A DNA stretch of 63,064 nt, the filler included, from Collodictyon triciliatum (Eukaryota), in the NCBI GenBank assembly GCA_043381765.1. It is 5 parts of 5 records of this genome, joined end to end, with 100 filler letters (N's around TTAATTAATTAA, not from the genome) between each part and the next. Parts side by side here need not be neighbours in the genome. Positions count along the whole stretch, not along the records: positions 1 to 17,664 come from JBHJMP010001430.1; 4 more parts are not named here. One strand, 5' to 3'. A model generated the notes under the pieces. The model made no database searches, had not been told where the DNA came from, and saw only the letters and a list, made by a program, of their open reading frames with translations. This document shows, one piece after another, positions 1-57,100 of this stretch. A program made the translations under genes and the position numbers. Position 1 is the first letter of the stretch; each line of letters opens with the position of its first letter.

Positions 1-1513
1 CAAGAGCAGCGCATCTCCAAACCCCGAAAGAAATCCCCCCTTAAACTACCCATTCAGACTGACGTGAATATGGTTAACATAGGAGGCAACAAGGCAGTCT
101 TTGTTACTTATCCGAAAGGATACTCCAAAGCGAAGGCAACACAAGAACCAGCGCCCACCAAAGATAGTCCGTTTATCCTTTCCCAGCCTGTCGCACCGAG
201 AACCAAGGAGCAAGAGCAAACACCACAAGTCGAATCCAAGCTTGGAACTTCACACACCAATGACAGTCCGAGCAAGCAGAGCGTATGTTTCTAAAACCAC
301 AAACGCGTATCCATACTCCAGTTAAGCAAAGTCAATTGCCGGCTACGCATGTTTCGGAACCAGGGGACGGTCAAGCGCCACTTCCGATAATACCAGACAA
401 ACAACGATGTATCGCTTTTTGTCTGAATCTCCAAACAAGAATCGCAAGGAAAGTGACCCGTTGTCCCCTCAAAAGACTCATCCTGTGGAATGAAATAGGA
501 TGTAAACCCTGTCTGAGATAGACGGTTGAATGGTCTCGTTGGAATCGATTTGAGAAGTAACTGCCATGTGCGTACTTTCATCGACCTGACAACTTTATCC
601 GCTCTTCTGTCAGTCTCGAATACAACCAGAAATCGCGTTGGAGCTCAACCTCGGGTAGAATAGACTGCGTGTGAAAACACTATCTCTCTTTTGTGTTTTC
701 TTTTTCTTTCCTTCCAAAACACAAAAAATCCAACCACACAATCCGGGGTTTCCACTGTCTTGTCCACAGCTCATTTGTGTGCGATAGGCAGAGGTAATTA
801 CTCAATTCTATTATTCTCTCCATTAAATATTACAAAAATGCAAAATAATAATATCATCAGTAAATCTTATGCAATTCACCACCCACACTTTATGTAATAT
901 ATTATGATTTGTAATTTGTCTATGTGATTTAATCAAATACCTCAGTTTGATGCACCTCCTACAGAATATTCAACCCCTGCTTCCCACACAACCAATCAAC
1001 CAGTTGGAACGCCCACCTGACCAATTCGCTATCACTGATTTCTTTCCAGTGCTAGCCTCTCCACAGTAGCCTTCTCTGCCAGTCTATGTGCCGTCCTCTG
1101 TGTCCCTTCCACGCCGCGCCATCTGCTTCCATTTTCGATGGTGACCGTCTGCCCAATAATTACACCCCAACTACTTATACACCACAGGCCTTTCTCACTA
1201 TATAATCTTCCTCCACTAAAAAAAAAGAAGATAAAAAATGAAAAAGAATCCCCTCCAACTTCGGTACTTGCGTAAGTACCAAACCTTTTCTCCTCATCCC
1301 ACGCCATACATGGCCCGTCTATGCCATATCCGGCCTCTCCGCAACACGTGCTGTCTCATACGACCTTAACCCAGACCCAGCCTCAATCCTGGCCCTGTAA
1401 GGCACAGATATAGGCACATGATATTCATACTATGGTGGGTGTCCCTAAATAACTAAAAAAATAAAAAAAAATAATCCCCAACAAGTCCCAACAATCGATG
1501 AAATGTTTTTTTT

Positions 1514-3177
1514 TTGTACGCTTTAAAGGCAGTCAGAGTAGTTTCACAGGATAGCCCCACAAGTTTAAAACATCCAGATACAAGTAAAGACATGATGGTT
1601 TTGCATCTCAATGATTTTCGATTCCTTTTGTCCCGAGAAGAACGCTTTCCGTTGGTTGGATTGTCTCATTTATTATGGTACTTGGCGAAGCAAATGTTAA
1701 CAACTTATTTTAATAACATTAAGTAACATTTTGTAAAGAGGTTACTGCGCTTTATAAATAAAACAGTACCTAAGGATCAGAATATGACGGAAGCTATTAA
1801 AAAGGCAGGGTTACGAAAGTTAAAAAAAACCATCTTCAAGAAACTCGAAATACCGGAAATATACAAAGAATGGGCTACAACGCACTTGCATCATATCATT
1901 CCCAGCGATATTGTAAAAACTATCGAATATGACGCCAAAGTCAGTCCAAACAAGTACAATACCATCTCTGATTTACATGAATCGCATTTTTGAGGACATT
2001 GGAACCAACCCAGTTCAACCAATCCCTATAAGAACTAACTATACATCATGTCATATTACTCTAGATACTGCATGTTTGATAGGTATTAGTATTATCTGGA
2101 AAACCATCATTACTGAAGAATATATAAGGATGCAAAGAGACACTGTGGAATAAAATCTTTGAAATGAAGAAGAGGGTCTTTCATCAAAGAGACTACAATT
2201 TCAAATACATGATACAAACAGACGGCTTGGCGGTGTCATTACTATTTGAAAAGAAAGGTATTTCAAATTCAAAAATCCAAATACAATAAAAAAAAAACCC
2301 CCAAGAATATGTTTATATAGATGACCTTTCCGAAGAGCAGTTATCTTTATTAGCGACAAAAAAATAGTTGGAGTGGACGCAGGCAAGTTTAATTCGGTTT
2401 ACATGATGGATGAGACAGGTAAGAAATTACGTTACACGGCACACCAAAAAAGAAGTGATAGCAAATCTCTTAAAAATTACAAAATACTCTTGTGCAAGAA
2501 AAGAAGTACAATTATTCAGGGATATGCATGACACCAGATATAGAAAGTGCTGTTTCTTTTTTCCCCTGACTTTTGAAGTGAATCAGCGGTTTGAGACATT
2601 AAGAGTATCTTTTAATCGATTTAGAGACAGAACTGTGTAAACATAATTCATGCACGGTCGATTATGAAAAATTTCGAGAATATGTACCTATGACATCAAG
2701 ATACCAGATAGAATTTTCCAGATTTTATAAACACGTAACTTTTCGAAAGATGAGATGGAGACAGTATGTTGATACAAAAAGAAGTGAAGAATTGTTTATG
2801 GACCGAATCGAAAAGACGTTTGGCAAGGATGTTGTACTGGCATATGGAGACTGGAGCAGAAAATCTCCGATGAAACCATTTTATGCCAATAATCGGAAGA
2901 GGATTACGAAAAATACTATCCAAACATTTTGAAACAGTTCGTGTAGATGAATTTAGAACCTCTAAGATGTGCTGCAACTGCGAAAAAGAGCTGGAATATA
3001 TGAAACTGAAAGGAAGTTCAAAAAAGTGTGTATAGATGTCTCATATGTAAAGAATGCAATCGCTCAGAAAGCAAACAAAGTGTATTCTTGACAAGGGACT
3101 TTAACAGCGCTAATAATATACTCAAGAAAGTTCTTTTATTCCTTCAAAATATGCTTACGCCCTCCTCTAAAAAATAG
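1514..3177 (+). pseudogene. Decayed Fanzor1 (TnpB/IS200-IS605-derived RNA-guided RuvC endonuclease), 5'-truncated, with an in-frame stop and several frameshifts
   Basis: Joining frames by hand gives YLAKQMLTTYFNNIK*HFVKRLLRFINKT ... YDAKVSPNKY/LIYMNRIFE..QPIPIRTNYTSCHITLDTACLI ... LWNKIF..YMIQTDGLAVSLLF ... IVGVDAGK (RuvC-I Asp, GAC 2376-2378) ..LRYTAHQ.. NSCTVDYEKFREY ..FRKMRWRQY..RIEKTFG..VLAYGDWS..GRGLRKILSKHF..VDEFRTSKMCCNC (RuvC-II Glu 2949-2951 plus CxxC) .. CLICKEC .. TRDFNSANNI (RuvC-III Asp 3097-3099). The motif order matches Fanzor1. TAA at 1724-1726; frameshifts near 1958, 2090, 2290-2360, 2880 and 3025. Confidence 0.9.
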
Positions 3178-3182
3178 ACTGT

Positions 3183-3340
3183 CGAATCTTTCCAGGCAAC
3201 CTTCACCACTACGCAATCTTCGTGAATAAAATGGTGAGACCTTGGATACTAGCGCACCAGGTCAACCAATCGAAAGATTTGTGTATCCCTTCTGGTACAA
3301 GATATAAATGTCAAGTGTAACTAAACGGAGAAAGCAAAAA
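3183..3340 (+). ncRNA. Candidate Fanzor omegaRNA scaffold / element right end
   Basis: Starts just after the Fanzor stop. AATCTTTC (3185-3192) pairs perfectly with GAAAGATT (3272-3279). Inside it, CCAGG (3192-3196) can pair with CCTTGG (3240-3245) with one bulge, and TCACCA (3203-3208) pairs with TGGTGA (3232-3237). A further hairpin TGTA(T)CC..GGTACA lies at 3282-3299. This position is where TnpB/Fanzor guide RNAs are encoded. Boundaries are approximate. Confidence 0.5.
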
Positions 3341-3474
3341 AAAATTTTTTTGTTTCGTTTCATTTCTGATTTATCATACATTTCTCTCATAGACTTATCC
3401 GTTTACTTCTTTGCTTATTTGTTAATTATTTCTGTCAATTTGTTTATCCATTTATTTATTCATTCATTAGTTTT

Positions 3475-5753
3475 TCACAACTTCCGGCGGATGATGAACT
3501 CGGACATGACATTGAGCAATTCAGTGATCTCCTAGTTATGGCTACCTTCAGTTGTTTGACAGCACTGACTTTAAAAAACGAATATATAATTGTTTGCTGG
3601 AATTTTGCGTTTGCTTTTGACTTTTCTCTTTATTATTATTATCATTATTTGTTTGTTTGTTTGTTTGTTTGTTTGTTTGTTTGTTTGTTTCTTTGTTTGT
3701 TTCTTTGTTTGTTTGTTTGTTTGTTTGTTTGTTTGTTTGTTTGTTTGTTTGTTTCTTTGTTTCTTTGTTTCTTTGTTTGTTTCTTTGTTTGTTTCTTTGT
3801 TTGTTTATTTGTTTGTTGGTCTAGAATGTGGGCGATTGGATAATTATTTCTGTTCCAATCACTTCACAGACAAACCTTTCTGCCCATGTTGTTCAAGTGC
3901 GACTTTGGAAGATTGGAGATGCGCAGGAACGGCAAGTCAGTCTTCTTGATTGATTCATACAAATACCGCTCCGAGTAAGGAAGAGTATACCGTTGGTCGA
4001 GTCTGTACCGATGTTATGAAGGTTATGTTTTTGAGGGGGTTTGGTTGAAGAGGCGATAATTTTAAAAAAAATGAGTTAAGAATCAGCGCGGTGAATGAGA
4101 TGAAATACAAATTTCCAGTTCCATATTCTGAAGATATCATTCAATATATTATTCTTCTGGTTCATTCGCAACTTTTATCGTATAATCAAGAAAAATAAAC
4201 CATCTTGGAACATATCTAAGTTAACTAAACCCATATTTCACCCCACCTTGTACCAACTATAATCTTAACCACATCAGGAGACATGTTTGAGTTTTTTATC
4301 TGTTTGAAGGAATGCTTTTTAAAAGATTTTTGTTCTGTACGGAGCTTATGTGAATAACAGCGCGATTTATACAAAAAAAAATTCACTTGGTCGTTATGAA
4401 ATTGATTTTTCAGTCCAGTTTGATGCACAGTTTTTCGTTTACAATCATTTCACTGGTATTTTTGACACGTGTATGAAAAGCATACTAGTTTCGGAAGTGA
4501 ATCGAGACTATCTTTATCTTGCAGTGAAAAGCAGAATAAGCAAATATCCACATCATAAAGCATCGACTTGCGTAAATATTCGTAACGTTGCAGTGCAAGA
4601 GTTCCACAGTCCCAGAAGTGAAATCGAAGAAGGGACACCTGCCCATCCATCGAAAGCTAGTATGGTTCGAATGAAAAATGTTGATTATTATTTTTTAACT
4701 AAAAAAGGGAAATTAATTTATGAAAAGTGTATTTTGATACTCTATATAGCACAAAACTATTAATTCAAAAATGAATATTCAAATAATCATGATATGGAAA
4801 CTTATAACAAAAAAGAATTTCAAAACAAAGTCTCGACGGAGTGAGACTTGGACTAAGAATGAATAAATAGAAAAAAGACACTATAATTTCAGAATGAAGT
4901 AAAAAATAAACAAAAACATGAATCAATGTATTACTTTCACGGGATGGTGACATATCGTCGTTTGCAGACCAGCTGTTTCTGTATGCGATTCAGGCACATC
5001 TGTAAGGAAAAATGGTAATCAACTATTATTGAATATTTGCTTATGTTTGTTGATGTGCTTGTTTAAGATTGATGTGTTTGGAATGGAATCAAGCATCAAC
5101 TTTGCTATTTTCATCGTTTCATGACCTGAGGAAGGAAGCATATGATTAAATGGGCACCATATCCGCAGCAATTCAGGATGGTAGATGTTTTTCCTACTGT
5201 CGCTTTTCCCAGGACAGCAACTTTCACAGATATACTCTTTCCATGCAAATCGGGATACACGTCGATTGACTTGCATAAAAGAGCTGATTTTCATTTTAAG
5301 TTTTGTTTTTGTAATGCTTGTGCACTTACACTTGCGTAAATTTTTGTTTTGATTTGATTTGATTTGATTTGATTTGATTTGTTATTGGCTGACGTATTAT
5401 CATTAAAAGATGAGAAGGTTCGTAATAAAAAAAAAAAAAACAATAACCATTTAAAAAATGATGATACTTTTACTTTGACATCCCCCAGTGTAATATGATA
5501 GGGAGGATGAATAAAAACCTGAGGCTGTGGGTTGTAATTTGTTGAACAACACGGCATACTCTTCCGATTCAGACCATGCGAGATCGATCTTCCCATGGAC
5601 TTTGTAGTCTGCCAGAATATCTCTGTCTTCCGCTTCTTCCTTGGAAAGATGCGTGATTGTTTCCTGCGCATGGGCGATGTCGTCCTCCTCCAGGTCCTGG
5701 ATCATCGCAGGTGTGCGCTGTGCATTACCCTGCAGAGCGGCAAACGAGGACAT
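3475..5753 (-). CDS. RSG1: RSG1/CPLANE2-like atypical small GTPase (CPLANE ciliogenesis complex), multi-exon
   Basis: Exons give IDLAWSESEEYAVLFNKL; VKVAVLGKATVGKTSTILNCCG (P-loop); DVPESHTETAGLQTTICHHPVK; GQVSLLRFHFWDCGTLALQRYEYLRKSMLYDVDICLFCFSLQDKDSLDSLP; SPDVVKIIVGTR; TDLPFLRISNLP; EITELLNVMSEFIIRRKL*. These are collinear with RSG1 as I recall it (W-x-ES, HETTGIQTT, FRFEFWDCG, PGVVRMVIGSK, LPLLRV). GT-AG boundaries are visible. Confidence 0.8.
3648..3817. repeat. (TTTG)n microsatellite, degenerate, inside the last RSG1 intron
   Basis: Tandem TTTG/TTTC units seen directly; they produce the spurious FVCL ORFs. Confidence 0.95.
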
Positions 5754-19627: not shown

Positions 19628-21013
19628 TCATGCTTTGATTCGCTCGAGCTTGGCACAGATTTCCTCAAAGGAAGGGCGTTTGTTCGCGTCGTTGTCCCAG
19701 CAAGCAAGAAGCAGCTCACAGAATCCATCGGGGCATCCCTGAGGCAACGGCGGCCGAACTCCACGGGCAGCGTCGTGCGCAATCTGATTTGACCAGGACA
19801 TGTGTAAGGCGTGTGTACCACGAACGTTTGGAGGAAAGAAATAAAGAAAAAGATGTAGTATGTGTCAACATAAAAAAAAGGATAATTTGAGAGTTAGAGC
19901 GATGATACATTCAATTGATACAGTGATGATGAGGGATAGGTATGAGAGTATCTGAATAAATTACACGAAGCTGGTTTGTCCCTGCAAAAGGGAGCGAGCG
20001 CGACCAGAGCTCCCACATAATCATGCTGAAGCTGTATACATCGCTCTTTGTTGTCAGCGGCTGACCAAGGAAAATGCAAGGGTCTGTACTGACGGCGCTT
20101 TCATGGTTGAGCGACTGCATGCGTGACTGTGCCTTGAGGACGCTGAATCCGTAATCGCAGACAATCGCATTCCAATCACCGGATATCTGGGACAAACCAA
20201 TCATGACAATATTAGAGAAAAAATGTATGAAGAAAGCAGGAAAGAGTTGGTAAGAAATATATATGGGGGCTTTCAGATAAGAAAATGTAAAAAGTATTCA
20301 ATATTTGTACTAATGGCGAGACACTTACTCCAATAGCTGACGTTTTCAAGTCCTCGTGCCGAATACTCGGGTCTCGCGTGTGAAGGTAATTGACGCCCAC
20401 CGCTATTTGAACAAGGATTTTGATCTTGGTGGAGGGGGTGATGTTCACTCGGTCGTCTTTTATCAACCGATCAAGCGTTCCTTTGTCGTAAAAGTTTGTA
20501 ATGTAGCAAAACCCAGGGGGGTTGACACGAGCACCAAGAATGGAGGATACATTTGAGTGGCTTAGCGACCTATGGACAGTTTATTTCACTTAACGTGTGA
20601 TTTTTATCAATTTGCGTGGATTCTTTGCATATATTTGTTTATTTGCTCATTATCTGCCCTCAATAGTTAATTCTCATTATTGTCAGTGATTATACACTCA
20701 AGATGCATGCTGGCATCAAGCTATTGCGCAACACTCACAAATAATTCCTTATTTCCGTCTCGAAGCCGATGCGCTGGGCCTCATCCATGGTCTTTCGAGT
20801 AAGCTTGCGGATCCAAACCTTGCGAGAACCCCAGCTGCCCACAAAGCGATCGGCATACCCGTCCGAGAAGACAAAGTCCTTGTAGTGGACAAGCATGGCT
20901 GGATCTTCCGTGTCACTGTGCGGGCTGCCTAAGGGCTTGCTCAGGTCGTCCAGATATACTGCGCTGTCTCCTTCTGCTCCAACAGCGTTTTGCTTTGTGC
21001 AGATTCCTCCCAT
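19628..21013 (-). CDS. N-acylated TKL-like pseudokinase, paralog A (4 exons)
   Basis: MGGICTK N-terminus; no Gly-rich loop; KVWIRKL at the VAIK position; RHEDLKTSAIG; VCDYGFS; STDPCIF in place of APE; TKSDVYSFSMIMWEL; RPPLPQGCP..LLLACWDNDANKRPSFEEI..IKA*. Confidence 0.88.
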
Positions 21014-21960: not shown

Positions 21961-23390
21961 TCAAGATATCAAGGTCTTGAACCGCTCAACAACTACAGAG
22001 AAGTCAGGTCGCTTTGAGGCATCCGTATTCCAACACTCTGTCATTATTTTCTGATAACCCTCCGGCATATTTGTTGGGATGGGGGGCCGGATACCGCGGG
22101 CTGAGTCATGCACAATCTATTTGAAACGGGCATGCCGATTTCATATTAGACATAACAATATTTCATGCTGTTATCTTTCAAAATATTCAATCTCTAAATA
22201 TTCTCTGCTATTTGTGGCATGGAAATTGATATGAACAACGAACCCTTAGTGGATTGAGGCCTTCAAAGGGCGCTGTCCTCGTCCATACCTCCCACATGAT
22301 GACACCAAAGCTGTAGACGTCACTTTTCGTTGAAATTTGATTCCCAAGAAACAAACCAGGGTCCGTGGTGGCAGCACTCTCCTGATTCAAAGATTGCATT
22401 CTGGACAGCGCTTTGAGTGGGCTGAATCCATAATCGGAGACCAAGGTTGCCCAATCATTCATGACCTAAATGATTATTTGCAAAAAGCAATATAATAAGA
22501 CAAGATAAACAAAATAAGAACAAAAAAAAAACCTGAGTTGCCACATAAAAAGAAAAATTGGTGGTATTTTTTTAAAAGTATTTGCATAACTCAATACTCT
22601 GCAAGTATGTTAGTAAAAGATTGTATTTAATGTATCTACCCCTATGTTAACCGTCCTTAGGTCTTCGTGTCGAATCGGGTCGCTCTGGGTGTGAAGATAG
22701 TTCATACCGAGTGCGATTTGTTTCATAATTTTGAATTTATTTGCTTGAGAGATTGATATTCGATCTTCCTTCAAAACAAAGTTGAGCGACCCCTTTTCAA
22801 AGTAAGTGGTGATGTAGCAAAACCCAGGGGATTGGACTCGAGCAGCTATTATGGATGCCACATTCGGATGATTCAACACACTAAGTTTTTAACACGCCAA
22901 AGGCAATATGTATGGGCGGATATTATAATTCAAATGATTAGTCAAGCAATTTTCCACTGTGAAAAGATATAGTTTCACACAAAAAGGGTTGGTGATGTTT
23001 CATTTTAATTCAATTTCAATTCGCCTTTTATACATGATTCCGAATAGACAAAGCAAAGTTTGTCACATAATGAAAAAAAAAAAAGAAAGAGGAAGAGACC
23101 CACTGGTATTTACGGACTTCCGTCTCGAAGTCTGCTCGCTGTTGTGGATCAAGGGCTGTTTTCGTCAGGCGGTGGACTATTGCCTTTTGGCCCCGAAATA
23201 AACCCACACTTATATCTGCATAGCCGTCTGTGCGGATAAAGTCCTTCAAGAGCAAACGAAACTCGGGCTCCTCTGTCTCAGGGTGAGGCGTGCCGAAGGG
23301 CAAGTCCAAGTTGTCGAGGTAGATCGTGCTGTCTCCACCCCCAGGGCCGAGATGAGACGCGGTGTTGCTTTTTGTGCAGATTGCACCCAT
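21961..23390 (-). CDS. N-acylated TKL-like pseudokinase, paralog B (4 exons)
   Basis: MGAICTK; KAIVHRL at the VAIK position; LNHPNV; RHEDLRTVNIG; VSDYGFS; TTDPGLF; TKSDVYSFGVIMWEV; RPPIP..ECWNTDASKRPDF..LIS*. Same three intron positions as paralog A. Confidence 0.88.
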
Positions 23391-30231: not shown

Positions 30232-32589
30232 GTGTTCGTAAAGCACCGGTTTAGGAATGAGTTCATAATCAGGATTGCTCTGCTCATTCCAGCAAGGTAG
30301 AAGTGTGATGCTACGAGACGCCCTCTTTATAGTCGATTGTTCTGCTTTGTTGTGAATGCACAAGCGGCCGAGAGCAGTCAGAACAGTAATTTCAGCAGGA
30401 AGTTCTTCAATCTGCGAGAATGGAAAAATGTTTTTGAGTTCATGACAGTGGATTCACTTTAATATCATATGTGTATTTAACAAACCGGATTATCACAGAC
30501 ATCCAACTGCACGAGGCCAGATAAACGTGTTATTTCCGATGACAGTGACAACAGCTGATTTTGAGAAACATCAAGGCGAGTGAGGACTGTCAGGTTTGAT
30601 ATTTGAGCAGGTACTGATGATATCTGTAAATCGTGATTATTAAGAATAAAATTAAGAAATGATGAAATTAATGCAAACATTAAAATGATATTTAATACAA
30701 ATTATTTTCTAAAAATAAGAGTCAATGAAAAAAGGAAATAAAAGTAGCAAACTTTGTTTTTTGATAAGTCCAGGTACGACAAGTTTGTAAGAGCGAAGCA
30801 TACATCCGGGAAAGACGTAAGCTGTAAGCGAACAGTGAATTATAATACAATCAATATTGAAGTGCTAGTGGTGGTTAATATAAAGTTATTAATATATTAT
30901 TACTTCGTTTGAATGGGCGTATAGTTTCTTCAGTCCTACTAAATGCTTAAACGAATCAGGAATCTGGGAGAGCCTCATATCACCCATCCATAGCGAGGTT
31001 GCGTGTTGGATTCCATGATTGTAAGGGGTGTACCGTACATTCATATTTTGAATTTCTTCCAATTCTTGAAAAATATTAGAGGTTAATGGGTATCCAGGAT
31101 GGTCAACTTGATTTGGTTGCAGGTGGTCATTTATGAATTGGGATGCAAACGAAAGTTCTTGTTCAGAAATTGAATGGGTCGAGTAGATATCTGGCTGCTC
31201 AATCTTAGATATTATGATTCCGCTAAGCTTCAAGGCCTTCACTTTCTCAAGTAATCTTTTTGACGATTCGTCTTTCTTTTTCTGCAGATGAACCACCAAT
31301 TCAGAATAAAATAATTCCCCAACCTTCTTTTTTGAAAGATTGGAAATGCTGCCAGCGTCTTCATTTGATAATTCAACAAATGCAATTATGTCATCTGGAG
31401 ATATGTAATACGTCTCAATCATCATTCTTTCATTCAGCCTGTCTTGAATTTCTTCAAATCTTTCCCAGCTTTGGTTTGAAATCTTATCGCTCAATTTTAA
31501 AAAGCCATGCTCTCGAAGCCACTCCACAAATTCACCCTGGTACATATCAGCCAAAGGAGCATATTTAATTGGAAGTAATTCGTTCATCATTTTTTGAGAA
31601 AGCATCTGTTGGCCAGATTTCAATTCATCCAAGTATATACAGACTGGATTAAGAGATGGTCGGAGCTTGTAGTTTTGCTTCCAGCACGCTTTGATAAGGT
31701 GGTTAAGCTCACTAGTGGTTTCTTTCGGTATTTCAGGTCGTAAACCCCTGATGACGAAACCTTGTGTCTCTTTTTCATTCATAAAAGGCTCGACGCCAGA
31801 AAACATGTACCAAACGAGCATTCCCAAAGCATACACATTACTTGGTTCTCCTCGATGCCCCTGATTCACTCCATCCTCGCCATACATTTCCGGATTATCA
31901 CCATAGTGAGGCGCGCCAACAACATCATGGATTTCTGGTGCTTGCCAATTGGCAGTTCCGCCTTTGTTATAACCAAATCTCGTCGGTAATCCTGAACCGA
32001 CTTTATCTACATCACGGTGACTTACTATCCCAAAATCCACAATTTTTGCCGTTTCATCCACAATCATAACGTTGTCGGCTTTCAAATCTTCGTGATACAG
32101 GTGTTTGGAATGCATGAAATTAAGACCTTGACACAATTGTTTTGTGTAAGAAATAATTTGAGGTAATGAAGGCTTCATGTTTTTCTTCTCCAACATCGCT
32201 TTCAATGAAATACCTGCATCCTCCATAATCATATAAAAGTTGTCCTCTTTACGATGCACACCAAATATTTTGACTATATTTTCACATTCCTTGCATTCAT
32301 GTAGAAACTTGCTTTCAAAAATGAGCGATTCAATTACCTCGCTGAGGGTCTGTTTTCCCATTTGTTTGATGGTTTGAATTTTCACCACGGCTCTTTTTCC
32401 TTTGTGTGTTGTTGTGTAAACTCGCCCATATGTCCCTTTTGCGAGATACCCTGACAGTTCTATTTTTTCATCAGCCCATAGGTCTTTTAGATCTTTGTTA
32501 ATTGAATCCAGCTCAAGAGTTCCTTCAGCAGATTGTGGCTTTTTTGTCTTATTCGCTCTCTTCAGCGAGGCAAATCTCTTTGAAAATCC

Positions 32590-32684
<95 letters not shown>

Positions 32685-35300
32685 AAAGTTTACTGGTATG
32701 TAACAACATTCAATAAAATTATCACTAATCTAAAATTTGACCTGGTTTGAATAGATTGAGTAAAAATAAACCTTGTTCCATGTAGACTCTTCCTTGCTTT
32801 ACTGCATTTGCTTCCAGGTGATGGCTCATGGTACAAGCCTTCAATTCTGATTCATCTATCTTTGCCGAAGTTTGAATGTATCCGTCTAATCCATGACGTT
32901 GGCATTCAGGGCATTTAAATCGGTATGCTTTCACAAAATTTGGTCGAATCAATGATATTTGCTTGATGAAGGTTGAAAGGATATCAAAAATCCTGACGAA
33001 TCTATCGCCACTCTCATCAACCTCATTTTCGTATTTTCTAATCTTGACTGAAATGCTCTTTTGGTGGATTTGGTACAAAACAATCAAACCGTCTCCAGGA
33101 AGCAGTTGAATTTCATCTGTTCCTGTTTTGTATGAAGCATTCAAGTGTATGAACGCTACATCTCTGAAAAACTGGTCGTCATACTGTACTCCAGCTTTTA
33201 CCTCTTTTGTCAAACGAAGCGCTTGTATGATAACATTGCTTTTATCACAGAGCTGGATTTCGCCATTGGTCATTATTTCTACAGTGGTTTCAGCAATACA
33301 GTTTGACTCTGGGTTTTCATTCCATAAGGCTTTGATATTTTGGCACTCTTCCATCAGTGAGGGAAAGGCGATGCATTCTCTGTTGAATTGAATCCCAAGG
33401 CCGAAATGGTCAAAGATTCGAAGAATTGTATTGAACACATGTTCGTCTAGTTCCGCATTCAGTTCTTGTTTAATTTGGTCCTTTAACTTGCTCAACAAAA
33501 TGATGCCACTTGTGTCCTTCCCGATGCCCTTGAAACTGAAGACACAGCGGAATATGTTGATGAGAAATAGTGGGTCCAAAAATAAAATGTCCTTTGCATT
33601 TTCTAGGGATGAATACCAAACAACTGAGCCAAGGTCGTGGAGGAATTTGAGAGCACTTTCGCACCCATTTCTGTCCATACCCAGCTGCTTCTCGGCAAAA
33701 TCGTAAGTGTCTTGGATTCGTTCGTACTTAGTATATTGGCCTTTTGAATTTAGATAGTCTTTCAGCCCGATATATGTTTTTGGAACGTCCTTGTTCATGT
33801 TATCAAGCCTCATCATTCCTTTATATATCTCTTTCTTCAAATCTGATATTTTTGTTCCGCTCTTGTTGCTCACTTTTAACTCTGTATTGATGAAGATATG
33901 GCGAGCCTTTTCATCCAGTTTCTGCTCATTTTCATTTTTAATTCGCTCGATATCTTGGTGTATCTCCCGACTAAAACTAGGATTCTCGCAATCTTGGCGA
34001 GTCCCAACAATTATAATATTTGAGCCAGGTGCGAAGTCATCAAGCATTTTGACCCAGCGGCTGAGGTTATTCTTCTCCTTGCCTTGGTCGAGTCTGTAGA
34101 GAATCAAAACAAGAGCGCCTGATGATAAAAAGAACGGGTGTGTTACTTGGAACTCTTCTTGTCCCCCAAAGTCCCATATCTGCATAGATAACTTGGTCTT
34201 GAAGAATCCACTCATCATCGACTCATCAATGTCGACATGTGCAATACCGTCTGTTGCAATCCTCGGCTGGTCAATTGTACTCTTGAAAAAATTGTATTTT
34301 TGTGTAATTGATTTGATAAGGGTTGTTTTTCCTGCCTCTCCCTCGCCCAATAGCAGGAGTCTTGCTTGGGTCCATTTTACAACACCAATCATAGAGTTTT
34401 CAAGGAAATCAAAGACGGCTTCAGACCCATTTCTGAGGACGTTTTCTGGTATATTTTTGATAGGATTTGCTTGGACGTTCAGTCCATCTCGTAGCCCTTT
34501 AAGCTTGGCGATGAACGAAGGTACAATGCAAATCTAAAAAATAAAAAGATGTCGATGAATCGGGGTTTCTACTAGTAAGATGTGACTTTATGGAGATCGC
34601 TCACAAAATAAGAAAAGGAAAAGGAAAAGGAAANNNNNNNNNNNNNNNNNNNNNNNNNNNNNNNNNNNNNNNNNNNNNNNNNNNNNNNNNNNNNNNNNNN
34701 NNNNNNNNNNNNNNNNNNNNNNNNNNNNNNNNNNNNNNNNNNNNNNNNNNNNNNNNNNNNNNNNNNNNNNNNNNNTTTACTTGGCATAATAAAAAAACTC
34801 ATTTACTTGGCATGAAAGCAGGTTATGAATTGACAATGGTCAATACAATTAATCAAATATGATTTCAGTATCAAACCGTATTGTGACGGGAGTGTACGAG
34901 TAGAGCTAGGATGCTCGACCGCCAAAAGGTCTCGAAGTGAGGCGATAACCTAAACGGAAAATATATAAAAACTTTTTTTTTAAAAAAAAAAGAAGAGCGC
35001 ATATTTATCACTTATTTTAAGTAATATGTTTTGGGGAAGAAGAGAGAAATGTGAATTAATCTGAGGAAATTATCCCACCAATGGCTGCTTCGTAGAGACA
35101 GAGTTAACTACGCTAAGGGGTATCCATCCTTTCGGGTGAATGCTAGCACAGTAAATGATTCTGGTGTAGTTTGTGTTTGCAAATGGCTCGATGATATATC
35201 CACCGAATAGAGTCTCGCCTCTTACAAATCCGCTGAATTCAGGTACAGATGGATGTTGTGTTGAAATGACGGCGATGTGATACGAATTTGTCTATGGAAT
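30232..35300 (-). CDS. Roco protein: LRR cap - Roc GTPase - COR - protein kinase - SAM-like - C-terminal LRRs
   Basis: LNVQANPIKNIPENVLRNGSEAVFDFL (pre-Roc); GEGEAGKT, ATDGI, WDFGGQEEFQVTHPFF, VGTRQD, VSNK (Roc); VPKTY..ALKFLHDLGSVVWY..LDPLFL (COR); LAKGTYGRVY, AVVK, YHEDLKADN, DFG, GTANWQAPE (kinase); then LRRs such as LTNLSYLDLSKNK and LTRLDVSQNQL. Both ends are approximate: the 5' exons above 34534 are obscured by an N gap. Confidence 0.88.
32594..32681. repeat. (AG)n microsatellite in the Roco COR-kinase intron
   Basis: Seen directly. Confidence 0.95.
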
Positions 35301-38709: not shown

Positions 38710-41700
38710 ATGGAAAGAGGACCGGACGACGGAGCTGGAGTTGCGCCAAGCGAGCTAACCCCGCCAACACCAGGATTCAATTACCTGACTGAAGACCCTC
38801 ATTCATCCATTCCTTTGCTGCATTCCGGCGATGGCCATGCGCCACTGAAGAGTTGTACATCTCTCTCTGCTGCTGTATTCAATTTGACCAATGCGATCCT
38901 TGGGGCTGGTGTGCTGGCTTTGCCTTTCTGCATGAAGGTAATTTTTTCAATTGACGATTTTATCTTAATTAAATGCACAAATTACAAAGGAGGGATAGAT
39001 GAGAGCCCCATCGTTCCATGTCTATGAGTCGGTTATTTGGTTGCTTATTTTGTTGATTATCTTCCTCTTAAAATATCTATCACGCATACATATATATCAT
39101 AGCATGTGATACCTATTCATTTGCTCACTTGTCCTTGAGAAAGGGGGAAAAATTGAATCCAACTAACTCGGTCTAATTTTCCTGATTCTTTTATGTAGAT
39201 TCTGGGTTTGGCATTCGGTCTATCAATGATTGCTGTGATATCAGTTATAACAAATTATTCCTTGTTTTTGCTCCATCGATGCAGTAACATCACCAAGCAA
39301 ATTTCTTACAGTCGTGTTTGTATTTATCTTGCTTTTGGTTTAGAAACGAACATATATGCTTCAAACAATGGTCTCCTTGGTTTAAAAAAAATTATGATTA
39401 TGTACTTTAAATATATTTTAAAATATCAGGTCGCCTTGAGGACATGTGGTCCATGGTTGTGCATTACTTTAGATTTTATTCAGGCGATATATAGCTTCGG
39501 AGTTCTCATCGCATATCTAATAGGTTTAAATTGTGCTTAATCCTGAATTATCAATACGTTTCACCAGGTTGATTTTCGAAGTAGTCCATTATTGATAGTC
39601 TCTCATTCGCATCTTTCATTACTGCCAGTCATTGGTGATACAGTGAAGCCTATATTCGAAGAGTTTGCTGGGTTGGATAAAGATGCTGATGGCCTCAGGA
39701 CAATTTTACTAATCATAGTGACTGTAAGAATTCAACAAGTCTTTAGTTTTTAAAAAAGTGAGGATTTTCCTGTCATTAATTCGTAATCAAATAGTACTTC
39801 ATTTTGCTTCCGTTGAGCTTGCTACCTTCCATTGATTATTTGAAGCACTCTTCGTTGGCGGCAATCATTTGTGTTTTTTTCATTGCATTTATGGTGATCG
39901 GGAAAAGTGTGGAATTCATCAAAACAAATGAAATTCGAAACATCAAACAAGTTAGGGTTCAATATCTTGTGNNNNNNNNNNNNNNNNNNNNNNNNNNNNN
40001 NNNNNNNNNNNNNNNNNNNNNNNNNNNNNNNNNNNNNNNNNNNNNNNNNNNNNNNNNNNNNNNNNNNNNNTGATATTGCCATATATATGATAACTTCAAA
40101 GCCTGAAAATATTTGTTTTTATAGTTCGATTTGAGTGTAGACTTCTTCATCGCGCTACCAATACTCCTTTTTGCATACAATTGTAGTGCTCAGGTGAACA
40201 TCTGTATTAGAGAAACGAAAAGATCGAACTCCAAAGAATTTTTGAACTTTTGTTTTATCAAATATAATGTGATGCAATTAATTTTAAATGCTTTTTCTGT
40301 TTGTATCTACCTCTTGATAATATTGTCAGATGATTCCGATCTACGGTGAACTACAGAAACCAATATCTGATGATGTAACGAATAGGCTATTACGTTATTC
40401 TTTCACTTTGTGCAATGGTATTCAGTTTTTGCGACTAGCTTAAATCACATCTTAAAAAAGTTTTGAAATATATTCTCAAGTGCTTTAAAACCCAATATTG
40501 ATTTGCTACGAATTATTAGTTGTGTACATAGCAGTGGCTTCTTTTGGTTATATTCAATTTGGAGGTGACAAGTTCTTTCAATATATGATAATACTCTGTT
40601 AAATATAGCATCGATGAATTCCTGTACTTCATTTGAACATCAGACTAAAAAAATTGTATATGCGTCATAAAAGAAAATACCCAAGACAATATACTATCAA
40701 ACTACAGAAATGACGATGCTGTTGCCGGTTTGTATTCAAATGCCAGTGATTGTGTTGTTGTTTATCCCTTCCTTAAGCTTTTATATAACTGAAAGTAAAC
40801 AAGTTTTCAGGAAGAGTTTTATTTGTAGCTATCGGTCGAATTTCTTTGAGTGCTGTCATCACTTTCTCGTATCCAATCATTTATCAACCACTGAAGCATT
40901 CGGTCGAGCATTTATATCATCTATATATGATTGGAAATCCTTTGCAAGTCCTCCAAGTAATTTTCATCTCAAAAAAAAAAAGCATACACTCTCACTGATA
41001 ACCTTGGTTGCTATGTTTGGTTCATCAAATAATTCGCAATTCATGTTTCTATTAATTTGTTTGGACTAGTGGTTTTTTTGTAAAAAAAAAAAAAAAGTTA
41101 AAATTCTTAAACTCCTGAAAAAATCATAGAAGTCTCTGGAAAATGAAGACGATCTTCACTTTCCTCCTCTCCCGAGGTATTTTGTAGTTGTGGAAGGATT
41201 TTTCATCGTCAGCCTCTCTTTATTAGTCGCTATTTTTGTTCCTAGTCTGACTCAGGTTTGGCCATAAAAGTTATTTTATGTGACTCTGACTTTTTTTTTT
41301 CCGTTTGGCCTCACCTGTGCGATAATATCCGGAAACATCACGACATATCAAAATTCCTTTTGATGTGGTGATATACTTGTCTCTTTCCTTTCTATTTTGG
41401 AAATGTGTATCTTGAGTCTAACTGTCCCCGATAATCTATCTTAAATGTGCACTCGTTTCGTAACAAGGTATTTGCTCTGACTGGTGCCATTGGCGCTCCA
41501 ACCATGTGTTACATCTTTCCAGGGTTGATGTATTTGAAGCTCATTCCAGTGGTGAGTATTGTAATTGTTTTTGTTTTTGCTTATGTTTTTGTTTTTGCTT
41601 ATGTTTTTGCTTTTGCTTTTGCTTTTGTTTTTGTTTTTGTTTTTGTTTTTGTTTTTGTTTTTATTCAGTCTTAATCTAAATTCATTAAAATTCGCACGTA

Positions 41701-54115: not shown

Positions 54116-57100
54116 ATGGACACTGGAAACACATCCTGGATATTGGTATATTATGATTCACTTGCACAAAAGCATTTAAAAGTCTCTTCTTTTTGCCTCT
54201 TATGCAAAACTTTATTCCATTCACGCATTCGAAATAGCACTTTGATCCCTAATCGAAAATAGAAAAAGCTTAAAGTAAGATACATAAACGGAAAATATGT
54301 AAAAACAATAATCAAAGCTGTTGTTTTTCTAAATCCAATCCCTGCCTCTCCATGCCACACTTTCATACTTTGATATCGCGCTGCCAAATTGAATATATCT
54401 TAATACGACGCTGTCATGGGACGAAAATTAGACTTCAACGGCTTTGGTCATGCTCATGGTACCTTTCATACAACACGGAGAACATAGCCGACTCTTTCTT
54501 CAAACATAATGATAATGTTTTCATGCGAAAAACGGCGGTATAATGAGCAGATATTTTAGACTCCAGGGTTGGCTTTCTTCTACTCTGGCGCTGGTGGAAA
54601 GAAATGGGTTCTATCAACGATGATGAGCTCACTTCTATCTCTGGCGATTGTGTCTGTCCAAGTAAAGAGTTACATTCATTTATTTGTCAGACTTTATGAA
54701 ACCAGATGAATGTCTATCACTATTGATTTTTTTGGTTTCTTTTCAATAGTTTGTCAATCACTATAGATATAATTGAATGGATTTAAGTAATATACCATTT
54801 TCTTCAGTTTGATATTCCAGCATCTCAAATATTACAAAGATTTCATATATTCAATATGAAGAAAACTTTTGTAAATTCCCAGTCACAAAAAGTTTCCATA
54901 ATTTAAACAATCTTATCTATATATCTATTTTCTTGCCGTGTGCTTCGTCGGAAATGACAGTTTTTTTAATACACCCAACACTATAATGGCTCATAGTGGT
55001 TCTTTTGGGGATACTCTCTCTCCTTTGCTGAAAGTGACTCTGGCTTCATCGGGGACTTACGTAATAATTTAACTGCACCAAAATATTTTACCAGTTCTTC
55101 TGTCTGGATGACATATCCTATGCCACTTTATAACCACTTAAAATATTCGTATCTTGATTATACATAGGCTACATGGGATTGAGAGAGATTGCTGTTGGGA
55201 TACCCCATCCAAATGCGCCTACAATTCCCCATGTGGTCTACATGATATACCAATGGTATAATGTTATTTTCTTCTTATGCCCACCTAAATTCATAAAAAT
55301 TCGTTCCTCTGACCTTAACTTACCTGTCAAGCATGTTTGCGGTGGTTACACCAGCGATTGCCTTTGGCGCAGCTGTAGAACGAGCTAGACTGGTGCCGTA
55401 CATGTTATTTCTTGTTCTTTGGTCAACTCTCGTCTATGATGTAATTGCTTACTGGACCTGGGCTCCAAAAGGCTGGCTCCGAGGTCCGTATACGCTTTTT
55501 GTTAAATTGCGTGAATAATTGTATGATATAATATAATATAATAGCAACAAAAAAACATGATAAAAAGAAAAAAGTATGGGTGGCAGGCAAACTTTAAAAG
55601 TCATATCCATTTCTTTTTATCAAGATGAATTGTCTATGCCCAAAATTGATTGTTTTTTTTTTTAATGAGCCCATACTTAAATATCTAGATATGGGAGCTC
55701 TGGATTTCGCTGGTGGAACAGCTGTTCATATTTCTTCAGGCTTTGCTGGCCTGGCCTACTGCATGGTGGTTGGGCCACGTAAAGACAAGAAAGGTGCAAA
55801 CAATCCAGTTTACGTTATTCTTGGCACTGGTCTACTCTGGTTTGGATGGCTTGGATTTAATGGTTTATTTATATTCAAAAAGATCTCTTGTAACGGTTCA
55901 AAGCCGTGCATATTATTTCATCTGACATCTCCACAAGAGAGGGATACCTCCTATTAATTTTCATATATCTTTTTACATGCATTATCTATTTTTGCTTTCA
56001 GGTGGCTCCGCAGCTGCCGCAAATTCTAGAGCGGGCAATGCAGTTCTTGTTACCCACCTCACTGCTGCATGGTCAGGAATTGTATGGTTGTGTGTGGATT
56101 TAGTGATGACAGGCAAGATGAATGCGGTCGGGTTTTGTAATGGTCAGTGTCTCTTGTCTTTTGACAGTATGAAAGGAAAGCATCACTCAAAAAACTGTAT
56201 GTTCATATCTTAGCATAGTCATCAATTAGTACTGCGCTTACCATGGTCAAATAGGCGCTGTAGCGGGGCTAGTAACGGTCACACCTGCATCGGGGTACAT
56301 CGAAGCACCAAGTTGTCTTGCTTTTGGATTCTGTGGCGCAGTATGCTGTTACTTTGCGTGTAAGGCAAAGGAAAAGCTTCAATACGACGACGCCTTGGAT
56401 TGTCTCGGTGTTCACGGAGTTGGTGGTTTCGTAAGTCCTACATTGATATTATATCATTTAAGCTATATATATCCAAGACGCTGTTATTTCATGTTTGTGA
56501 TTTTTCGATTTGAATGTTAGATTGGGAACATATTGACAGGAATATTTGCGTCCGAAAATATTGTTGCGCTGGATGGTACATGCACAAGCAAACATGACGT
56601 ACCACTTTGCACCCCTGGTAATACATTATTTTTTTAAAAAGACTTTATGTAAAACGCAACAACTGTACATACTATGATGTGTTCAATTTATTTGCATTAT
56701 TGTAACATACAGATATTTTAAAGTAAATATGACGGCGTTCCATACTGATATATTGATAGGCGGCTGGGTCAATGACTACTACATCCAAGTCCCTATCCAA
56801 ATCCTTTCCTCAGTGGTCGTTGCTGTTTACTCGTTTGCTGTAACATACGTTATCCTCTGGATTCTAAACAAAATTCCGCGGTGCCATCTTCGTGCATCTG
56901 CTGAAGACGAGTTGGTTGGATTGGATATCACAGAAATAGGCCAGACTGCATGTACGTAGACTCTAATTCAACTTTTCTCAAGTCTTTTTCTTTTATTTCG
57001 CCTCGCCACTTTAACATTTATAAAGGGGTCTATATGTCTTCAAACTAAATATTTTCTATAAAATTACACTCGTCCTTATCACAGACCCCTATCTGGATGA

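Follow-up and report, generated by a model that had tools for sequence, protein, structure and literature searches.

The DNA analysed here (the window) is a stretch of 63,064 nucleotides (nt) from the Collodictyon triciliatum assembly GCA_043381765.1, made of five parts joined by 100-N fillers. Scaffold gaps, microsatellites and multi-exon host genes identify it as eukaryotic nuclear DNA. Near its start lies a decayed Fanzor1-like gene, a homologue of TnpB, interrupted by a 98-nt segment with GT and AG ends, which an earlier note on this DNA had described as a candidate spliceosomal intron gained by the element (Table 1). The gene is part of a longer repeated unit. Contigs of four public runs (X1, X2, X8 and X3) were aligned to the window at 80% likeness, with 19, 364, 337 and 93 contigs aligned, respectively. 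In X2, X8 and X3 the contig depth goes up from ~1435-1521 and down after ~3261-3348, and the contig cover of the flanks (1087-1434 and 3349-3522) is nearly nil. The unit belongs to a multi-copy repeat family, which hundreds of diverged contigs represent in two other organisms. It runs ~170 nt beyond the stop of the gene, and the only inverted repeats at its ends are of low-complexity A/T sequence (1451-1472 and 3344-3365).

Table 1. Coordinates of the element, its gene, the lesions of this copy and the host introns used for comparison (HSP, high-scoring segment pair; frames as numbered in the tblastn search).
Feature	Position	Strand	Basis or remark
Repeated unit (element), approximate extent	1435-3340	+	Contig depth in X2, X8, X3
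Decayed Fanzor1-like (TnpB-homologue) gene	~1505-3165	+	tblastn HSPs over three frames
tblastn HSP	1505-1957	+	Frame 2
tblastn HSP	1959-2087	+	Frame 0
tblastn HSP	2098-2343	+	Frame 1
tblastn HSP	2349-2504	+	Frame 0
tblastn HSP	2612-2881	+	Frame 2
tblastn HSP	2877-3023	+	Frame 0
tblastn HSP	3022-3165	+	Frame 1
In-frame stop TAA, private to this copy	1724-1726	+	Inside the frame-2 HSP; every contig over it has G at 1724
Frameshift, frame 2 to frame 0, no extra DNA	1957-1959	+	Abutting HSPs; one-base difference at 1959 in part of the other copies
Two frameshifts (~2087-2101, 2343-2352) and in-frame stops (2125, 2287)	2087-2352	+	HSPs of P0005 and L002
RuvC-I motif GVDAGK (Asp codon 2376-2378)	2370-2387	+	Translation of 2325-2531; aligns with GADPGK / GCDPGK of homologues
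Purine run AAGAAAAGAAG at upstream edge of segment	2496-2506	+	Frame 0 (upstream) meets frame 2 (segment), one base apart
Candidate segment GTACAA...TTAAG, 98 nt	2506-2603	+	Extra relative to 147 of 203 homologues; homologous to the 35-36-codon insert of P0002, P0152 and P0154
Extra T, absent in many other copies	2610	+	Contig indels
One-base insertion, frame 2 to frame 0 (MK-P/H-FM)	2874-2876	+	HSPs; P0001 reads straight through
DEFRTSK motif (2946-2966; Glu codon 2949-2951), then zinc-finger pair CCNC (2970-2981)	2946-2981	+	Translation of 2874-3035
Frameshift, frame 0 to frame 1, in A run	3022-3028	+	HSPs; one-base differences at 3027/3028 in part of the other copies
Second zinc-finger pair C-LI-C (3037-3048) and RuvC-III motif RDFNSANNI (3094-3120; Asp codon 3097-3099)	3037-3120	+	Translation of 3010-3177
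Host introns	20187-20328, 19784-19964, 22466-22639, 22117-22243, 38938-39198, 55863-56001, 56143-56254		Two further introns less certain

The gene is homologous to residues ~80-603 of homologues of 624-634 amino acids, and no counterpart of their first ~80 residues was found in the window by tblastn. A search with the 109-residue piece encoded by 2603-2932 returned 810 relatives (HMMER against 1.84 billion representatives). On metagenome contigs 416 relatives of one close relative, P0001, were found, and 80 of these loci were kept (L001-L080, from lake and marine metagenomes), 60 of them with a single uninterrupted frame of 599-710 codons. These Fanzor-like open reading frames (ORFs) are collinear with the window gene and are the closest full-length relatives found, all of the loci returned being 46-53% identical to P0001; 60 of the 80 have no insert at the site of the segment. 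The best solved-structure matches of the 2603-2932 piece are weak (SpuFz1, E 0.0034; PpFz1, 0.029; GtFz1, 0.068). They rise to 2.5e-8, 1.9e-12 and 1e-6 for P0001 and to 9e-37, 7e-34 and 7e-16 for the full-length homologue P0004. On these sequence matches the gene is like those of Fanzor1, the eukaryotic and giant-virus homologues of TnpB.

The solved Fanzor1 proteins SpuFz1 (PDB 8GKH), PpFz1 (9CF0) and GtFz1 (9CER), although of low identity to the window gene, show the same order of motifs: the RuvC-I Asp, a D/N-E-F/Y-x-T-S stretch ahead of a CxxC pair, and RuvC-III. The codons of the RuvC triad (the RuvC-I Asp, the Glu before the zinc finger and the RuvC-III Asp) can all be read in the window. 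Aligned via the homologues, the counterpart of DEFRTSK is LDEYKTSS in SpuFz1 and IDEFRTSS in PpFz1, and RDFNSANNI aligns with TRDLNSA of the homologues. The Glu ahead of the zinc finger would be the catalytic, "rearranged" RuvC residue described by Jiang et al. (Sci Adv 2023, PMC10530073). The Cas12f1-like_TNB profile (PF07282) matches a 53-residue piece with E 0.0023 and 18.5 bits, below its cut-off of 26.3 bits, and both CxxC pairs are present.

This copy of the gene is a pseudogene and has no intact reading frame. Outside the 98-nt segment it contains at least five frameshifts and three in-frame stops, with no extra DNA at the shifts. Since the DNA on the two sides of these frame changes abuts or overlaps, they are not explicable by introns. 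By tblastn, extra DNA is found over the whole gene only at 2519 to 2612, and the gene has no intron elsewhere. The defect at 2876 may be shared with other copies. The extra base is missing in 64 of 174.6 depth units of X2 (37%) and in 20.8 of 162.7 of X8 (13%); most of the X2 and X8 depth thus lacks the difference that would leave the frame unshifted, and therefore copies with a dead frame appear to spread in the family. One X2 contig skips 96 bases at 2258-2353, also with GT...AG ends (GTATTT...TTATTAG, shifted by 2). The skipped bases encode residues conserved in the homologues, YVYIDDLSEEQL, and for this reason the skip is taken as a deletion variant or a chance GT-AG; it serves as a control for the ease with which GT...AG pairs arise in this repeat.

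The break at the 98-nt segment was located by tblastn with 60 uninterrupted homologues of 600-710 amino acids (12 shown). Fanzor similarity stops near 2505 and restarts near 2604-2612, and the residue number of the homologues stands still (~422 to 420) while the window advances from 2519 to 2612, so that ~93-98 bases are extra. GT is present at 2506-2507 and AG at 2602-2603. Stop codons lie in between, at 2529-2531 in the upstream frame 0 and at 2567-2569 in the downstream frame. The 2505^2604 join computed from the window reproduces the 34-residue peptide given in the earlier note. The fit of this peptide was tested on the 203 of 235 homologues with a blastp alignment spanning residues -20 to +25 around the joint. 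It aligns without a gap in 147 of them, and gaps occur in the other 56. Among 14 pairs of GT and AG near the break, four keep the frame and only 2506/2603 leaves it open without the loss of conserved residues. In this copy, removal of a GT-AG stretch thus brings back the frame and the spacing of the homologues, as expected of a spliceosomal intron. The break, the GT and AG, the peptide and the spacing reported earlier were all confirmed in this way, and what did not hold of that observation is the likeness of the size and acceptor to host introns, discussed below. The GC content of the segment (0.378) is like that of the exons of the element (0.34-0.36) and overlaps that of the host introns (0.24-0.37), and a codon-position GC test has no power because the element exons are without third-position bias (0.375, 0.306 and 0.358).

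The close relatives also carry the segment. Over the matched stretch P0146 is 75% identical to the window, P0001 70% and P0002 60%. P0002, P0152 and P0154 have the upstream part, the segment (36, 36 and 35 codons, respectively) and the downstream part in one frame, and they read through the segment without a stop; only P0002 counts as an unbiased sample, because it was itself the query that retrieved P0152 and P0154. P0146 and P0001, both found by the downstream sequence only, have no stop in the segment when it is read in the downstream frame (34 and 29 codons). Counted from the Tyr that both types share at the upstream edge up to the last Ser, the stretch has 35 codons in the P0152/P0002 type as well as in the window/P0146 type. 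Compared without gaps over these 35 positions, the two types have nine identical residues and five conservative replacements (our own count), and the segment identity between the lineages is ~26-30%. At the position of the GT of the window P0002 carries His-Tyr, and no GT is possible there, as no choice of His and Tyr codons yields one. In the purine run, two bases of the window (AG) stand opposite the Arg codon that precedes the shared Tyr in P0152. A one-base loss there would both break the frame and create the GT. A spliceosomal intron should lie outside the protein in the relatives as well, and in these relatives the segment is read in frame or is open.

We tentatively favour the reading, at somewhat below an even chance, that the segment is a lineage-specific, fast-evolving coding linker, broken in this copy by single-base indels. 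The family would have acquired an insertion of ~105 bases (35-36 codons) in the linker that leads from the Lys/Arg-rich helix after RuvC-I to the next helix. This insertion would be, or would have been, translated, and the linker is probably disordered. The resemblance to an intron would then stem from the loss of one base of the purine run at 2505/2506, by which the GT itself arises, from a further one-base loss around 2561-2574, and from the extra T at 2610 as the third frame-altering indel. We infer that active copies translate the segment. The linker is favoured because every relative that can be judged reads the segment in frame and free of stops in spite of its low identity, for which we estimate a chance of ~1e-3 (at ~0.07 stops per random codon for this composition), and because the segment lengths of the relatives differ by whole codons. 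A change of length is also natural at this site, as 56 of the 203 homologues have indels around it, of up to 19-20 residues, and PpFz1 shows an alignment gap of ~108 residues, although some 40 residues downstream of the segment site; SpuFz1 has no extra residues at the site and is four residues shorter. A coding linker would show only that the region between the Fanzor1 motifs tolerates ~35 extra residues.

Several observations weigh against a translated linker. Three frame breaks fall in the segment of ~105 bases and eight in the other ~1570 bases, a crowding with a Poisson chance of ~0.02 if decay were even, although all three lie in or beside homopolymer runs. P0146 and P0001 begin with Met within the first 2-4 codons of the segment, which suggests that what precedes it in them is likewise stopped or out of frame with it, and P0001 is otherwise intact over 223 codons. 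The frame jump seems to be shared by the four X2 and seven X8 contigs covering 2503, since no indel at 2501-2506 was found among the 12 best supported of 84 indels. Removal of the GT...AG stretch restores the exact spacing of 147 of the 203 homologues. The segment is less conserved than its surroundings, with 64% identity between P0002 and P0152 against 78-86% in the flanks, and ~60% between the window and P0146 against 77% (our own counts).

The same observations speak for the second reading, which we regard as somewhat less probable than the linker, namely that a true spliceosomal intron makes up the segment or its 5' two-thirds. Such an intron would have been gained after the split from the uninterrupted genes of giant-virus type, with the donor GT at 2506 in phase 1 and the acceptor AG at 2602-2603 in this copy. 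When it is taken out, the joint is open and has the ancestral spacing. The frame changes between the upstream and the downstream part in the window and presumably also in P0146, P0001 and the contigs of X2 and X8, and single-base indels crowd in the segment. Within the gene body the bin 2479-2565 has the lowest contig depth in X8 and nearly the lowest in X2, so the 5' half of the segment is the most diverged part. As the intron of the earlier note would need, other copies share the insert: it is present in P0146, P0001, P0002, P0152 and P0154, that is, in all close relatives seen, and in contigs of other runs, one X8 contig of 271 nt bridging 2479-2746. Neither terminal inverted repeats nor a target duplication of an independent insertion was found at the segment. 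Introns are also known in Fanzor genes, which according to PMC10530073 captured introns to densities of up to those of host genes.

The intron is doubted, first, because its acceptor needs the extra T at 2610 to be in frame. This T is missing in 53.5 of 64 depth units of X2, in 84.2 of 160.7 of X8 and in 0 of 5.65 of X3. By frame arithmetic, in copies without it the acceptor at 2603 is out of frame, and the AGs in frame are those at 2604-2605 (an intron of 100 nt) or 2577-2578 (73 nt). The 73-nt form, 2506-2578, would end directly behind the T-rich tract at 2549-2574 and leave the last 8-10 codons of the segment coding. The in-frame or open reading of the segment in the five relatives, the whole-codon differences of length and the lack of any possible GT at the homologous place in P0002 all stand against an intron, as does the absence of any other intron in the gene. 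No exact 2505^2604 joint was found among the 15 joints listed for the contigs at 80% likeness of runs X1, X2, X8 and X3, none of these runs being on record as RNA. Two nearby joints, 2501 to 2611 in one X2 contig (shorter side of 25, with unknown letters between) and 2501 to 2568 in one X3 contig, were considered as splicing and were read instead as alignments broken by divergence.

The second ground for doubt is a mismatch in signals and size with the host introns sampled. Nine host introns were inferred from the continuity of Pfam profiles, a small sample of which two members are less certain. Their lengths are 142, 181, 174, 127, 261, 139 and 112 nt, with 277 and 169 nt for the less certain ones. 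Eight of the nine acceptors are CAG or TAG, one less certain intron has GAG, none has AAG, and the 3' ends are T-rich. Eight of the nine donors have T at position +6, and the less certain 169-nt intron (GTTAAA) has A. The earlier note had held that the size and the AAG acceptor matched host introns of this window; the comparison contradicts this, as the candidate (GTACAA...AAG) has 98 nt against 112-277 nt, an AAG or GAG acceptor against YAG in eight of nine, and A at +6, and three other AGs lie between its T-rich tract and the proposed acceptor. In signals and length it is thus unlike the nine introns, two of them uncertain. On a rough estimate, the likelihoods of the linker and of the intron differ by less than the uncertainty of the estimate. 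More generally, a frame-restoring GT...AG pair in a decayed repeat is weak evidence for an intron. If the intron is true, it would be one more case of Fanzor genes gaining introns after they settled in eukaryotes, a process described in PMC10530073, and it would show how long a giant-virus-like Fanzor lineage has been resident in these hosts. Novelty is low with a linker and with an intron, since introns in Fanzor genes are already published.

The meeting of two frames in the purine run also allows a different, improbable explanation, in which a programmed -1 ribosomal frameshift or polymerase slippage on a seven-A run at 2497-2503 joins the frames, so that the segment would be translated with the C-terminal half; the P0002 subfamily would represent the form in which the frames are fused. 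At the A run the step from the upstream to the downstream frame is exactly -1. Position 2503 is A in 32 of 45 depth units of X2 and in 74 of 74 of X8, which gives a run of seven A (G-A7-G) in those copies, and by our own count a -1 shift there yields the residue number of the in-frame P0152. Slippage would explain why the segment has stayed open over the long term and also why the frame jump is shared, even by the otherwise intact P0001. A plain one-base deletion in a homopolymer accounts for the same facts, however, and the frame jump of P0001 and P0146 is deduced solely from the starts of the called ORFs. The zero-frame heptamer would be G-AAA-AAA, not the canonical X-XXY-YYZ, and it occurs only in the other copies; no stable fold was found at 2470-2625 or 2506-2603 (z-scores of +0.52 and +0.76 against shuffles). 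Transposase genes of the IS1 and IS3 types use programmed -1 frameshifting on A-rich slippery runs. The locus resembles them in having two overlapping frames one base apart at an A run in a mobile-element gene, with relatives in which the frames are fused; it differs in that a canonical heptamer and a stimulatory fold are lacking, the host is eukaryotic, and the protein is a nuclease and not a transposase. We know of no frameshift-dependent TnpB or Fanzor gene. If true, this would be the first recoding signal in a TnpB or Fanzor gene and a means to dose the nuclease.

That the segment is a private insertion in one copy, such as a small transposon or miniature inverted-repeat transposable element, or an artefact of assembly, is very improbable. 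It is suggested by a 16-nt imperfect inverted repeat, 2476-2491 and 2601-2616 (88% complementary), which brackets the region, and by three bases (AAG) present at both edges. The presence of the segment in the five relatives and in contigs of other runs contradicts it. The left arm of the repeat is part of the conserved coding sequence (KNYKILL) and not of inserted DNA, so the repeat is taken as chance, and the own ends of the segment are without terminal inverted repeats. By blastn and tblastn, no further copy of the 98 nt or of the element was found within the window. An origin by internal duplication was also considered, as the frame-1 translation of 2578-2625 resembles the FETV-V-EFR region further downstream (E 0.045); this match was rejected as chance because part of it is a wrong-frame translation of the coding sequence downstream.

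Close relatives were also sought at the DNA and protein levels. A scan of viral contigs with P0002 and a genome scan with P0001 alone returned no close-relative DNA, and a degenerate DNA pattern for the conserved FRKMRWRQYV was absent from the viral and genome contigs scanned. The upstream piece 2325-2531, used as a protein query for longer proteins, gave no matches.

The uninterrupted relatives most likely sit in giant viruses, because unsplit Rpb1, MutS domain V, minor capsid P11, rhodopsin and DUF5767/DUF5871 genes were found in the flanks of four of the 80 homologue loci. In the ESM Atlas, P0002 has neighbours mostly in Nucleocytoviricota, Mucoromycota and Zoopagomycota clusters. In the eukaryotic setting the closest comparison is Fanzor1c of Chlamydomonas reinhardtii, as presented in PMC10530073, which is likewise a TnpB-homologue nuclease gene in several copies in a eukaryotic genome. 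It bears introns, whereas here splicing is putative, relatives read the segment in frame, no other intron is present and the copy is a pseudogene. The earlier note had concluded that the element is not a fresh viral or bacterial insertion, and this is right, on the grounds of its heavy decay and multi-copy nature and not because of an intron. The accompanying idea that it was adapted to nuclear expression cannot hold for the copy at 1505-3165, as this is a pseudogene.

On two long giant-virus-like lake contigs, microbial-type rhodopsin genes were found 1-8 kb from the Fanzor-like ORF (L058:10646-11383 and L029:1291-2142), and in L058 a DDE_3 transposase ORF lies 1.5 kb upstream of it. In the window, the neighbourhood of the element includes a separate, very abundant repeat at 1000-1086 (depth 1173 in X2 and 1468 in X8), from which the contigs of three runs depart after 1064-1069. 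A long (TTTG)n / (TTTC)n microsatellite is located at 3640-3810, just past the 3' end of the element, and tetranucleotide arrays resembling it are present at 44.9-45.1 kb.

The host donors with T at +6 read GTAAGT, GTAATT, GTAGAT, GTTCGT, GTTTAT, GTCAGT and GTTATT, with variable positions +3 to +5; the T at +6 may be a donor rule specific to this lineage, although the sample is small. The host genes include two tandem tyrosine-kinase-like protein kinase genes on the minus strand (19631-20580 and 21964-22888), each with at least two introns at matching sites of the kinase domain (after profile positions ~137-143 and ~212). An ammonium transporter gene at 55297-56956 on the plus strand has at least five exons (PF00909, profile positions 91-398), and an amino-acid transporter is another multi-exon gene. 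On the minus strand, 30892-34533 contains two long open frames of 566 and 602 codons, in which a kinase motif and a Ras-like GTPase P-loop were recognized by eye, in a layout like that of ROCO/LRRK proteins.

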